A stretch of 64,000 nucleotides of DNA, from the IMG/VR virus record IMGVR_UViG_3300031519_006853, positions 117,664 through 181,663 of that record; one strand, written 5' to 3'. The notes under the pieces were generated by a model, which was not told the DNA's origin, did no database searches, and saw only the letters and a program-made list of their open reading frames with translations. This DNA comes from a virus. Numbering within the stretch: the first letter of the stretch is position 1; each line of letters starts with the position of its first letter. Shown here piece after piece: positions 3,496 through 24,493 of this stretch. A program made the position numbers and the translations under genes.

Positions 3496-3981
3496 TTAAA
3501 ATGTTGAATTTATAATTAGTTCTTGGATCTCACTTATTAATTGTTTCTTCTCTCTTGATCCTTTTGGATTTCTTCCGTTAATTGCACTTATGTAATTTTT
3601 GTCAATTAAATAATCTGAAATTACTGTTGCTAATACTTTTGCTCCAGATGGTTTATCTTTTCCAGCTACTTGAACCATTGCTTCATCCATAGAACCGTAG
3701 TTTTCATATGCTCTATCCATAGATTCATTTACATGCTTCTTAGCTTCTTTAAGATATGATTCAGCTGTATGATCATTATTATCATTAGTTTCATACATGT
3801 TTGCTTGTTCAGCAATATGATTTGAACATGATTCAATAATTCCTGTAACAGGAGTCATACTATATCCAGTTTCTGGTGTTGCACCACCTAATCCAAAATT
3901 CTGGATTCCTGATTGCCCAAAACCCATAACTGCAATTTCTTCATTTACTTCGAATTTATCAAAATTTGGTATCTTACTCAT
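3496..3981 (-). CDS. protein with CTS-like N-terminus, putative internal head protein
   Basis: Starts MSKIPNFDKFEVNE|E. It is the first gene after a leftward AATATATAA motif. Confidence 0.65.
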   Translation of the reverse strand: MSKIPNFDKFEVNEEIAVMGFGQSGIQNFGLGGATPETGYSMTPVTGIIESCSNHIAEQANMYETNDNNDHTAESYLKEAKKHVNESMDRAYENYGSMDEAMVQVAGKDKPSGAKVLATVISDYLIDKNYISAINGRNPKGSREKKQLISEIQELIINSTF

Positions 3982-6145: not shown

Positions 6146-6218
6146 TGTCCTATGGTGTAACTGGCAACACGTCTGTTTTTGGTACAGAAGAGTCGAGGTT
6201 CGAGCCCTTGTGGGACAA
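6146..6218 (+). tRNA. tRNA-Gln (anticodon UUG), CCA not encoded
   Basis: Cloverleaf: acceptor TGTCCTA/TGGGACA, D arm GTGT/ACAC, anticodon stem TCTGT/ACAGA with loop TT-TTG-GT, T arm CGAGG-TTCGAGC-CCTTG. The U1-A72 pair is typical of tRNA-Gln. Confidence 0.93.
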
Positions 6219-6233
6219 CTATTTGTTTTAAAA

Positions 6234-6328: not shown

Positions 6329-7630
6329 ATGACTGAACTAACAAAAAACCTAAATTATCTACAATCATTTATTGATGAAATGAATGATTCATCTTCGGGT
6401 AATTACAAAATTGAAACTATTAAGAAACACTCTGATAGTAAATTTCTACAAATGATTTTTAATTATACTTATAATCCTTATAAGAAATATAATGTAACTT
6501 CAAAAAATTGTAAAAAGAATTTTGATTTACTTGGCCATGCAAATACTTATGGTAGTATCTTTACTATATTAAATGATTTAGCAAACAGAGTTTCTACTGG
6601 GCATACTTCAATTGCAAATGTTAACAGATTTATCTTAGAAAATAAACAACATGAAACTCTTATTTATAATATTATTGATAGAGACCTTAAAATGGGTGCA
6701 TCTACCAGTTCTATTAACAAAGTAATTCCAGGATGTATACCAACATTCAAGGTTGCATTAGCAAATCCTTATAATGTAAAAAGAGTAGATTTCAAAAGTG
6801 GAGACTGGTACGGTTCTAGAAAATTAGATGGAGTTCGTTGTATTTGCCGAAAAGAAAATGATATAGTAACATTCTTTTCTAGGAGTGGTAAAGAATTTTT
6901 AACATTAGGTAATTTAGAAAATGAAATTCTAAAGATTCCAGGTAACTTTATTTTAGATGGAGAAATCTGTATGGTTGATAAAGATGGCAATGAAGATTTT
7001 CAAGGAATCATGAAACAGATTAGAAAAAAGGATCATCAAATTGAAAAACCTAAATTCTTTGTATTTGATTATTTAACCTTAGAACAATTTGATAATCAAA
7101 CTGGAACTACACCATTAACATTAAGATTAAGAAATGGTTATCATAACTTACCAAATGATGTTAACTATGATATGTTAGAATTCTTACCACAAGAACAATT
7201 AACTACCGAAGAACAATTTACTGAAATGGCAAAGGCTGCTGAAGATGCAGGATTTGAAGGAATCATGGTTAGAAAGAATGTAGGCTATGAAGGTAAAAGA
7301 AGCCATAATCTACTAAAGGTTAAAAAATTCCATGATGCAGAATATACCGTCTTAGGAACTACCAATGCATTTATCCGATGGACAGAAAATGGTAAACAAG
7401 TAGAAAGAGAATGTTTAAGTAACATTACAATTGAACATAAAGGTTGTAAAGTAAATGTAGGATCAGGATTTTCTAAAGAACAAAGAGAAATGTACTTTGA
7501 TTTTCCACAGAATATTATAGGTAAGACTGTAACAATTCAATACTTTGAGGAAACTAAAAATCAAAACGGAGGATTCAGTTTAAGGTTTCCTGTATTAAAA
7601 CATGTTTATACCAATGGCAGAGATTGCTAA
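6329..7630 (+). CDS. lig: ATP-dependent DNA ligase
   Basis: SRKLDGVR (motif I), ILDGEI (III), FFVFD (IIIa), EGIMVR (IV), LLKVK (V), and a C-terminal OB fold ending in LRFPV. Confidence 0.95.
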   Translation: MTELTKNLNYLQSFIDEMNDSSSGNYKIETIKKHSDSKFLQMIFNYTYNPYKKYNVTSKNCKKNFDLLGHANTYGSIFTILNDLANRVSTGHTSIANVNRFILENKQHETLIYNIIDRDLKMGASTSSINKVIPGCIPTFKVALANPYNVKRVDFKSGDWYGSRKLDGVRCICRKENDIVTFFSRSGKEFLTLGNLENEILKIPGNFILDGEICMVDKDGNEDFQGIMKQIRKKDHQIEKPKFFVFDYLTLEQFDNQTGTTPLTLRLRNGYHNLPNDVNYDMLEFLPQEQLTTEEQFTEMAKAAEDAGFEGIMVRKNVGYEGKRSHNLLKVKKFHDAEYTVLGTTNAFIRWTENGKQVERECLSNITIEHKGCKVNVGSGFSKEQREMYFDFPQNIIGKTVTIQYFEETKNQNGGFSLRFPVLKHVYTNGRDC

Positions 7631-13088: not shown

Positions 13089-13115
13089 AAACAATTATTA
13101 TATTTAATGTATAAT
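13089..13115 (+). promoter_or_regulatory. AAACAA-N15-TATAAT promoter-like motif
   Basis: Same bipartite pattern as 4012-4039, 21932-21959, 52168-52195 and 60442-60468, all intergenic and before non-structural genes. Confidence 0.55.
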
Positions 13116-21931: not shown

Positions 21932-21987
21932 AAACAATCTACATAAGCCTGTGTATAACAATTAAATATGCTAGGTGTAATATATAA
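21932..21987 (+). promoter_or_regulatory. Tandem AAACAA-N16-TATAAC and AATATATAA motifs before the S1 gene
   Basis: AAACAA 21932-21937 and TATAAC 21954-21959, then TAATATATAA at about 21978-21987. Confidence 0.5.
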
Positions 21988-22017
21988 TCTATAATAACCA
22001 CTCTTAAAAATAAAAAA

Positions 22018-23160
22018 ATGACCGAACAAGAAATCACCATTCAATTAAGTGATGATCCATTTGATACAAAGAAAGTAAAAGTCCAAGTACCAGAAGGTAC
22101 AAAGTTAATGTGTAATGAAGCATATGCTGCTGATGCATTATCATTATATGGAATTACAGATTCACAAGCTGCAAAAACTCAACTAATAGAAGATAATATT
22201 GGTTATATAACTAGAGGTTATATTTCTTTTATATCTAAGGATGGCGAAAGGGCTCTTGTTGATATTGAATCCAAATACACTGCTTACTGTAGTCTTACTA
22301 AAGAACCTGATTATATTGTAGAACAATTAGAGGTTGGTATGGAAATTGATGTTAAGATTAAAACTAACAAAAAAACTGGTGATGTTATTGCTTCTATATC
22401 AGATGCAATAAGAGAAGTTAAATTAAAAGAAATTAAAGAAGCTATAGGAAATTCTTCAGTTGGATTTACTGCTAAGGTTAAAGAATTAATACACGGTGGA
22501 TACTGGGTAGACGTTGCAGGTATTAAATGCTTTATGCCAGGTTCTTTAGCAGGATTAAATAAGCTTCATAATTTTGAGGCTATCGTTGGTAAAGATATTG
22601 TGGTTATGCCAATTACATTCTCTAGAGAAAAAGATACAATTGTAGTATCTCATAGAGAATATTTAAGAACAATGATTCCAATTACTATTGATAAATTAAA
22701 TGAAACTATTAAAGAACCTAGAATTGGTTTTGTAACAGGTACTACTAAATTTGGCGTGTTTGCTGAGTTTGACGAATGTTTAACTGGACTAATTCCTAGA
22801 GCTGAATTAAGCGAAGATTTCCAAAAGAAATTAGATGATAGAGATATCAAACCTGGTGATGAAATTGAATTCTGGGCTAAGGAAGTTATATCTGATAGAA
22901 AAATTATATTAAGCCAACTAGGTCCTAAAATTGATTTATGGGATGGTGTAGATGAAAAATATAAACCTATGATGATCACTGAAGGTAAGGTTACAAAAAT
23001 AACTTCATACGGTGCATTTGTTGAATTAGAAAAAGGTATTAGTGGGTTAATACATAAATCTAAATTAAAAGGTGCAGATCTAACTAAAGGAGATACTATA
23101 AATATAAAAATCGGTAGTGTAAATGTTAGTGATCGTAAGATTACAATGAACATAGCATAA
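22018..23160 (+). CDS. rpsA: ribosomal protein bS1 homologue (four S1 domains)
   Basis: D1 (ALVDI..KY..Y...LEVG.EIDV), D2 (GGYWVDV.GI.CFMPGS...VG.....IVVSH), D3 (KFGVFAEF....TGLIP..EL), D4 (SYGAFVELEKGISGLIHKS.L...RKI). Confidence 0.85.
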   Translation: MTEQEITIQLSDDPFDTKKVKVQVPEGTKLMCNEAYAADALSLYGITDSQAAKTQLIEDNIGYITRGYISFISKDGERALVDIESKYTAYCSLTKEPDYIVEQLEVGMEIDVKIKTNKKTGDVIASISDAIREVKLKEIKEAIGNSSVGFTAKVKELIHGGYWVDVAGIKCFMPGSLAGLNKLHNFEAIVGKDIVVMPITFSREKDTIVVSHREYLRTMIPITIDKLNETIKEPRIGFVTGTTKFGVFAEFDECLTGLIPRAELSEDFQKKLDDRDIKPGDEIEFWAKEVISDRKIILSQLGPKIDLWDGVDEKYKPMMITEGKVTKITSYGAFVELEKGISGLIHKSKLKGADLTKGDTINIKIGSVNVSDRKITMNIA

Positions 23161-23164
23161 CATA

Positions 23165-23203
23165 TTCCTGGTTTGAATATATAAACAAATCAGGAACTAC
23201 ATG
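23165..23203 (+). promoter_or_regulatory. Late-promoter motif in the loop of an 11-bp hairpin before the amidoligase start
   Basis: TTCCTGGTTTG (23165-23175) / CAAATCAGGAA (23186-23196), one G-U pair, loop AATATATAAA, ATG at 23201. Confidence 0.7.
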
Positions 23204-24493
23204 TATACTAACGAACAGCTAAATGCCATATACTCATCCAAGATTGGATTAGAATTTGAATTCTTTGCAAATGAAGCATTAGACGAAGTAAAATATAACT
23301 TATCTAATGCATTAAATAAGCAAATTAAAATTGAAGAAAAGGCTCATAGTGAATTTACACCTACAGATGAAATATTTAAATTAGAGCCTGACAACTCTGG
23401 TGGAACTGGGATGATTGAATTAGTTACAGGACCAATGCCATTTGTTGAATCAAAACTTATCATAGCTAAAACTTTAAAATGGATTCGTGAAAATGGATCT
23501 ACTAATGAGAGATGCAGTATTCATATTAATGTTGCATTTGATGGAAAGAAACTTGGTACACCTACAAATGTGTCTTCTTTAGATATTGGTAAATTTGTAC
23601 TTAACTTTAATGAAGATGCTGTATATGAAGCATTTCCAAATAGAAAAGATTCTGTTTACGCTAAATCTATTAAATTTATTGTACCATTGAGTGGTATGAC
23701 TCAACCTTCCCCAGCAACTATTTCATGGAGAAATTATATGTTTGTTTCTGAAAAATATTATGGTGTAAACTTTTCTAAGATACCTAAAAATTATATAGAA
23801 TTTAGATATTTAGGTGGAAAGGATTATGAAAAGAAGTATAACACAATTATGAATATGACAGAACATTTTGTATTGTCATTATATGATTCTTTAGTAAATC
23901 CAAAATATAACCAAAAAGATCTTAAAGTATTAGAAACTATTTTAGAAAAACATAGTGGTGTAGTAGACTCATATAAAGACTATCAAACATTTAAAAAGAA
24001 ATTTCCTAAAATACATTTAATGGTAGATCTAAAAACAGCCGATCAAATAGTAGAAACATTTTATCCTAAAATGAGAGAAAAGATATTTGAACTTTTAACT
24101 AAAGCTGGATTAAAAGAAGGTTTAATTAATTATGATGCTGATAGTGGCAGGATGCAACTTAAGAATGCCGAGTTAATGAAATGTTTTGAAATAAAAGGTA
24201 TAGATATTGTTGATAGTAAAGTACAAGGTAACATTTTAAACTGTGATATATTTAGTTCTGAATTAATTAACTCTTCATTATTTGAAAGTAATATTTTTGG
24301 TGCAACTGATGTTAGTGATTCTAAAATAGAGGATTCTTATGTAAGTAAAAATGTAATGTGTAAAGATTCATATGTATTTGGCGTAAGAGGAATATTCAGT
24401 GGTGAAATGGAAGGTGGCATTTTTAGAAAAGGTAGAGCTACAGAAATGGCGAGATTTGAAAATACCGAAATAATTGAAATAGAAAAAATATAA
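23201..24493 (+). CDS. putative amidoligase (COOH-NH2 ligase type 2, glutamate-cysteine ligase fold) with C-terminal beta-helix-like repeats
   Basis: IGLEFEF, EPDNSG, IELVTGP, CSIHINV, KYYGVN and IEFRYLGG motifs. The C-terminus has repetitive I.DS.I segments. Confidence 0.75.
   Translation: MYTNEQLNAIYSSKIGLEFEFFANEALDEVKYNLSNALNKQIKIEEKAHSEFTPTDEIFKLEPDNSGGTGMIELVTGPMPFVESKLIIAKTLKWIRENGSTNERCSIHINVAFDGKKLGTPTNVSSLDIGKFVLNFNEDAVYEAFPNRKDSVYAKSIKFIVPLSGMTQPSPATISWRNYMFVSEKYYGVNFSKIPKNYIEFRYLGGKDYEKKYNTIMNMTEHFVLSLYDSLVNPKYNQKDLKVLETILEKHSGVVDSYKDYQTFKKKFPKIHLMVDLKTADQIVETFYPKMREKIFELLTKAGLKEGLINYDADSGRMQLKNAELMKCFEIKGIDIVDSKVQGNILNCDIFSSELINSSLFESNIFGATDVSDSKIEDSYVSKNVMCKDSYVFGVRGIFSGEMEGGIFRKGRATEMARFENTEIIEIEKI

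Follow-up and report, generated by a model that had tools for sequence, protein, structure and literature searches.

Genes for a 'possible rpS1' were reported from huge phages by Al-Shayeb et al. (2020; PMC7162821), who linked them to the lack of SD motifs and proposed a substitution of the host protein. The domains, docking residues, synteny, and promoters were left unresolved there. A phage-encoded bS1, for which replacement of host bS1 has also been proposed, was described for cyanophage PhiMa05, where it is one of six ribosomal proteins which group with Vampirovibrio host genes (PMC13157829). Large phages of the Bacteroidetes type were found to encode bS21, a protein of the 30S platform (Chen et al., 2022; PMC9723584); a word search of the main text of that paper revealed no mention of bS1. 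Literature searches gave no bench test of a phage bS1.

Among the cellular proteins, E. coli bS1 is known to contact uS2 via F5/F9 and K43 (PMC10123108). The bS1 of F. johnsoniae has an additional aromatic helix (residues 11-20) which is positioned on uS8 (PMC13000457). It is loosely bound and raises initiation on an SD-less mRNA about 2-fold (PMC9976891).

The existence of such phage genes and the idea of hijacking are already published. What is distinctive here is a phage S1 copy which is devoid of the FxW anchor and has a rebuilt N-terminus. Its gene is located in a window (the whole stretch of DNA that was analysed, 64,000 nt) from a linear virus record of 181,663 nt, which is about 65% complete. 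The metagenomes in which this record is found are marine and brine. The gene and its domains are:

22018..23160, + strand: gene for the four-domain bS1-like protein (ORF of 380 aa)
22201..22395, + strand: S1 domain 1 (bS1 D1-like), with D82 (= D39) and K86 (= K43); assigned by domain profiles
22462..22650, + strand: S1 domain 2 (bS1 D2-like, FMPGSL motif); assigned by domain profiles and alignment
22717..22914, + strand: S1 domain 3, with F245 and F248 kept and the conserved His changed to Pro260
22972..23154, + strand: S1 domain 4 with a canonical RNA-binding face (Y331, F334, and H346 invariant)

The ORF is real, conserved, and under purifying selection (dN/dS = 0.08-0.12, 10 relatives compared) and it matches Pfam S1 at 4e-22; PHROGs has no family for the protein. 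In marine RNA libraries, contigs that match parts of the S1 gene differ from it at 0-1 positions. Being strandless, silent on level and timing, and possibly derived from DNA, these contigs hint weakly at transcription of the gene. On the 5' side, the gene is preceded by a gp5-like spike gene (20734) and then a 98-aa ORF; on the 3' side, it is followed by an amidoligase-like gene (23201) and a gp13-like neck gene (24500). The preliminary description, which had placed the S1 gene between the spike and neck genes, was correct as to the interval, but the gene touches neither of them because the 98-aa ORF and the amidoligase-like gene intervene. The amidoligase-like protein (430 aa, window positions 23201-24493) is fixed between the S1 and neck genes; its clusters in the ESM Atlas, all of which are viral, carry PF12224 in 12-29% of their members. 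A tRNA-Gln (TTG) gene is found at window positions 6146-6219.

The domains of the phage protein were scored against profiles of each bacterial bS1 domain, and its fold was predicted by AlphaFold2. A single-sequence fold was unusable (pLDDT 32); the model based on a 100-sequence alignment reached a pLDDT of 80 and a pTM of 0.55. This model has four OB barrels (about residues 62-126, 149-211, 234-299, and 319-379), with a beta-hairpin (2-24) and a helix (36-44) ahead of them. Phage domain 1 scores a mean of 32 bits on bS1 D1 and phage domain 2 scores 51 bits on D2, with at most 11 bits on the other domains in both cases. Phage domain 3 scores 35-36 bits on D4/D5 versus 21 on D3, and phage domain 4 is a generic RNA-binding S1 repeat. 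The residues F245, F248, K295, Y331, F334, and H346, which belong to the aromatic RNA-binding face of C-terminal S1 repeats, are invariant in 107/107 close homologues. Domain 4 and the preceding linker are among the best-conserved parts of the protein (93-95%), as would be expected if they actively bind RNA.

In NCBIfam, the first nine places are taken by RpsA models (top match 6.6e-43), which span roughly residues 57-379. The RpsA cut-offs are missed by far (128 vs. 577 for TIGR00717; 126.5 vs. 368 for NF005208), that of TIGR00717 being missed also by some true Bacteroidia bS1, though narrowly. Sequence matches in the PDB are all to bS1 or its homologues (best 6e-30), with E. coli bS1 aligned at query residues 56-351. 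Foldseek places bS1 first (9gut_B, 7.5e-25), followed by the CvfB-like 3go5 (2.3e-10), Tex (3.9e-5), and NusA and RNase R (near 1e-5). The non-ribosomal S1 proteins (CvfB, Tex, PNPase, RNase R, GSP13) share the S1/OB fold, but their matches are to single repeats, mostly to domain 4, and none is on D1-D2. Neither winged-helix, nuclease, or PH domains nor a best match to CvfB, Tex, PNPase, or RNase R were found for phage S1. An identity with any of these four was rejected because of sequence and fold scores which are far weaker than those of bS1. The initial proposal of four tandem S1 domains, the first two being D1-D2-like, in a derivative of bS1 and not of CvfB, Tex, or PNPase, is thus borne out by the AlphaFold2 model and the domain profiles as well as by the sequence and fold searches, which are topped by bS1. 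That the phage protein is a shortened bS1, consisting of D1-D2 and two RNA-binding S1 repeats, is well-supported. We consider it likely that phage S1 docks on the host 30S subunit at uS2 and supports the SD-less initiation of phage mRNAs from mid-infection on.

When compared to Bacteroidia bS1 (F. johnsoniae, about 591 aa; PMC13000457, PMC9976891), the phage protein shows the same D1-D2 order, the D39/K43 loop, and the uS2-binding helix, and the domain profiles of the phage family score slightly highest on Bacteroidia D1 (36 bits) and D2 (55 bits). The two differ in the number of domains (six in Bacteroidia bS1, four in phage S1) and share only about 27% identity. Furthermore, a beta-hairpin is found in phage S1 where Bacteroidia bS1 has the FxW/uS8 helix, the His of domain 3 is a Pro, and phage S1 belongs to a separate, long-branched clade and itself scores below all NCBIfam cut-offs.

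Two elements at the N-terminus precede the first S1 domain:

22021..22089, + strand: N-terminal beta-hairpin (aa 2-24) with an invariant DDPF turn (AlphaFold2 strands 2-9 and 17-24)
22099..22155, + strand: K-x-x-x-x-E-x-Y family motif and helix (aa 28-46), equivalent to the N-terminal uS2-binding helix of bS1

In the alignment to bS1, Y44 corresponds to F9, L43 to L8, D82 to D39, and K86 to K43. Most of these bS1 residues are named as uS2 contacts (PMC10123108). Of 107 close homologues, all keep D82 and K86, and 106 keep Y44. The position of F5 is occupied by A40/L41. The lack of F5, F79, and K117 (F79 being absent in Bacteroidia too), the missing FxW, and the replacement of the domain 3 His by Pro260 were weighed against the favoured reading.

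A complex of phage S1 residues 1-145 with Flavobacterium uS2 was modelled along with three controls. The score was 0.78, compared to 0.00 for the best of the 3 controls, with at least 97% contact agreement between runs and a partner pLDDT of 86; the mark set for this score is reached by 58/80 solved complexes and by 2/110 mismatched pairs. As bS1-uS2 is a solved textbook pair, the result may reflect likeness to known structures. In the model, K86 contacts uS2 residues 204-207, which include the invariant N204-D206 pocket, and residues 28-46 pack on uS2 residues 29-39. The predicted interface is thus compatible with a docking of phage S1 on uS2. Residues 1-23 make no confident contact and are outside the predicted uS2 interface.

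The DDPF hairpin aligns with the FxW anchor of Bacteroidia, DPFDT being the segment concerned, and its residues 11-15 are invariant in 107/107 close homologues. The FxW anchor (the uS8 contact) is absent from the N-terminus of phage S1 according to this alignment. The FxW helix is found in 14/14 Bacteroidia bS1, in 0/55 other bacterial bS1, and in 19/82 family representatives, and a DPF-hairpin-like motif is found in about 15/82 of the latter. FxW is kept by about a quarter of the representatives, the DPF hairpin is present in roughly a fifth, and both are missing from many, which indicates that the N-terminal anchor is variable across the phage clade. The DDPF hairpin probably binds to another surface (uS8, phage bS21, or a phage protein).

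A hairpin that is highly conserved yet located outside the predicted uS2 interface could also be explained if phage S1 acts off the ribosome, as an RNA chaperone or as cofactor of a phage enzyme, with D1-D2 and the DDPF hairpin binding a phage partner. Host S1 has such roles with T4 RegB or Qbeta replicase (PMC3014915, PMC10123108), and the question of 'on or off the ribosome' was left open by Al-Shayeb et al. (PMC7162821). Throughout the subgroup, however, the uS2-pocket loop keeps K86 and D82 without exception, and in the model the protein is docked on uS2, so that we consider such a role improbable and prefer docking on the 30S subunit.

The timing of S1 production can be addressed by elements flanking the gene:

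21932..21961, + strand: AAACAA-N15-GTATAACAA, probable middle (pre-replicative) promoter-like motif
21979..21987, + strand: AATATATAA, probable late promoter motif, at -39
23165..23196, + strand: conserved hairpin with a late motif in its loop, covering the leader of the amidoligase-like gene

The two promoter-like motifs had already been seen upstream of the gene in the preliminary description, and each of them is kept in 40/42 distinct relatives. The genome contains the AAACAA-N15-GTATAACAA class 12 times; every copy is on the + strand and ends 3-145 nt ahead of a start codon, mostly that of a non-structural gene. Judged from this distribution, the class is probably one of pre-replicative/middle promoters. 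Copies with the class pattern AAAC[AT]A-N13-16-RTA[ACT]AA[CT][AT]A are found at window positions 13089 and 52168, and further copies of the AAAC[AT]A-N13-16 class at whole-record positions 3578, 5856, 11964, and 14992. ATATATAA occurs in 38 copies on the + strand, 24 of which are located at most 60 nt upstream of a start, many of them before virion genes, and in 8 copies on the - strand; the AATATATAA class is probably a late promoter. A generic scan for sigma70 sites and terminators gave nothing above chance (10 sites vs. 11 expected), and TAnnTTTG, the housekeeping -7 motif of the Bacteroidota, shows no enrichment ahead of starts (2 matches). A third motif upstream of genes consists of ATTATATTTATAT/CTATAA and then, just ahead of the ATG, AAAACGGAA; it is possibly an early promoter with a leader element. 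This motif precedes several small genes (for example, near record positions 105149, 105700, 106144, 114725, and 123982) and is also found upstream of the gene at window position 6329.

The hairpin downstream of the S1 gene folds at -6 kcal/mol or below in 24/26 distinct sequences. Its structure was taken from one alignment row and was evaluated by single-sequence folds and pair counts, with 87.7% of cells paired and 2 pairs changed on both sides (modest covariation); RNAalifold gave no consensus pairs for it. Because the late motif is in the loop, the hairpin would vanish from late transcripts and be confined to read-through RNA (mean -13 kcal/mol, compared to a mean of -0.4 for RNA started just after the late motif). 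The same arrangement is known from T4 gene e and I-TevI, where the timing gate works by staying folded (PMC3014915). By analogy, the hairpin looks like a T4-type timing gate, and this would fit a production of S1 ahead of that of its amidoligase-like neighbour. That such a gate works folded counts against S1 existing to melt such hairpins. The folding of initiation regions has a mean of -1.7 kcal/mol vs. -2.1 for shuffled sequences, and is -0.9 kcal/mol for late-motif genes. It had been suggested earlier that S1 unfolds start-occluding hairpins, but this could not be upheld, given that the initiation regions are nearly unstructured and that the one strong hairpin is gate-like. S1 as melter of many such hairpins was rejected because initiation regions are no more structured than shuffles.

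A family search gave 1,223 matches among 90% clusters, and 82 of the best 150 representatives at 50% identity have a length of 330-450 aa. Viral context was confirmed for IMG/VR loci, phage records, and four of the 82 representatives (two by their Pfam neighbours, two by gene layout alone). Homologues were detected by tblastn in Lak phages and in phage records of 462-735 kb (32-43%). Based on its sequence, phage S1 is assigned to the huge-phage S1-like family of Al-Shayeb et al. (2020; PMC7162821), motif-bearing proteins being present in their supplementary files 149, 174, and 199. The present copy belongs to a marine subgroup with the DDPF hairpin at the N-terminus, the longest contigs of which have about 200-220 kb. 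D1-D2 trees unite all 89 phage-type rows in a single clade, separate from the 72 bacterial bS1 (SH-aLRT 98-100). A grouping of phage and Bacteroidia bS1, and with it a donor from the Bacteroidia, is neither demonstrated nor rejected (p-AU 0.48), these being quick trees in which long-branch attraction is likely. The phage S1 family is an old, phage-specific clade which is widespread in large Bacteroidota phages; the present S1 thus differs from the bS1 of PhiMa05 in being a member of an old and divergent lineage specific to phages. No S1 homologue was found in the cultured Bacteroidota jumbo phages MA9V-2 and PTm1, so that phages of this kind do not all depend on the gene. Two records from a phage collection, MT839544 and MT835655, contain ordinary IspH-bS1 fusion genes and resemble fragments of bacterial chromosomes.

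For the analysis of synteny, 58 IMG/VR loci of relatives were fetched. The order spike - S1 - amidoligase-like - neck - gp25 - gp6 is kept wherever these loci cover it and also in distant members, and in the 462-kb phage it is found up to the neck gene. Such constancy of the position among the baseplate genes might be expected for a structural or injected protein of the virion, with OB folds having been recruited into the baseplate. In the Lak phages and in the 635-735 kb phages, however, the order is broken, and the distance between the homologue and the neck gene amounts to tens to hundreds of kb. As the S1 gene also has a second, non-late promoter-like motif and the residues for ribosome docking and RNA binding are invariant, we consider a virion protein highly improbable and retain docking on the host ribosome as the preferred reading.

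The translation starts of the phage were then compared to what is known for Bacteroidia.

22006..22017, + strand: A-rich leader without SD motif of the S1 gene (leader survey)

An SD core (GGAG/GAGG) is found before 1/167 genes, compared to 4.3% at internal ATGs, and A is enriched at positions -3/-6/-12/-13 of phage starts (58-65% vs. 32-39%), in agreement with the SD-less, A-rich starts noted at the outset. The same positions tune initiation in F. johnsoniae, which uses the same A code (PMC6847099). The A content over positions -20 to -1 is 0.56 in phage leaders vs. 0.44 in a small and biased host sample of 108 leaders from low-GC Bacteroidia loci; the coding strand of the phage is A-rich overall. 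The more A-rich phage leaders make a bias toward phage mRNA possible, but since host leaders share the A code (PMC6847099), any bias would only be a matter of degree. A graded preference of phage S1 for the A-richer phage leaders is thus possible.

The initiation regions of the phage are also less structured than those of the host sample (-1.8 vs. -2.8 kcal/mol). Along with their higher A content, this would be in accordance with a dominant-negative or filtering decoy function, by which phage S1 evicts the six-domain host bS1 from uS2, so that translation of the host declines but unstructured phage leaders continue to initiate. As phage S1 has just two repeats for RNA binding, and one of these is degenerate, structured or less A-rich host mRNAs would be left unserved; docking residues are kept, two domains have been lost, and the His of domain 3 is a Pro. 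The strong conservation of domain 4 and its linker speaks against a mere decoy, as does the late motif at the S1 gene, which points to a stage when a shut-off of the host is less useful. Nor is the reduced size indicative, because bS1 ordinarily has four domains in Bacillota. We consider a decoy unlikely and favour active support of phage initiation.

The phage also encodes bS21 (62 aa from ATG; whole-record positions 114123-114311, + strand), in a region of small genes about 3.4 kb upstream of the window start. Its best matches are 44-51% identical and include Bacteroidia genomes. bS21 is present in 41/41 Bacteroidota vs. 6/31 Pseudomonadota genomes and was seen in 2/5 relative contigs, these contigs being fragmentary. 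In the phages of Chen et al. (2022; PMC9723584), which are likewise large and of Bacteroidetes type, the head module carries the bS21 gene, which is on the reverse strand there, whereas here it is on the + strand and far from the head module. For the relatives of the neck protein, every named host belongs to the Bacteroidota. The phage-encoded bS21, the lack of SD motifs, and the A-rich leaders indicate a Bacteroidia host, so that the phage probably infects members of this group. The DDPF hairpin might even read a phage-modified platform (e.g., one with phage bS21), and bS1 and bS21 together might specialise the 30S subunit for A-rich leaders to the exclusion of host mRNAs, which we regard as rather unlikely.

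According to the reading that we favour, a large, T4-like, marine phage infecting Bacteroidia would probably produce S1 from mid-infection onward, as is suggested by the two promoter-like motifs. Helix 28-46 and K86, the lysine of the D1 loop, would dock S1 at the uS2 site of the 30S subunit, with the FxW anchor of the host protein being replaced by the DDPF beta-hairpin. There, phage S1 would compete with or supplement the loosely bound host bS1 and may replace it; the loose binding of host bS1 and its stimulation of SD-less initiation (PMC9976891) make such an exchange feasible. Domains 3-4 would retain single-stranded A-rich leaders close to the exit channel of the mRNA and thereby maintain a high level of initiation on SD-less phage mRNAs, possibly with some selectivity for the A-richer phage leaders, and phage bS21 possibly acts jointly with phage S1. 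A minimal four-domain S1 with a swapped anchor is testable in the existing F. johnsoniae in vitro system. It bears on the question raised by previous work (PMC6847099, PMC13000457) of whether bS1 reads the A-12/A-13 motif which replaces the SD in Bacteroidia.
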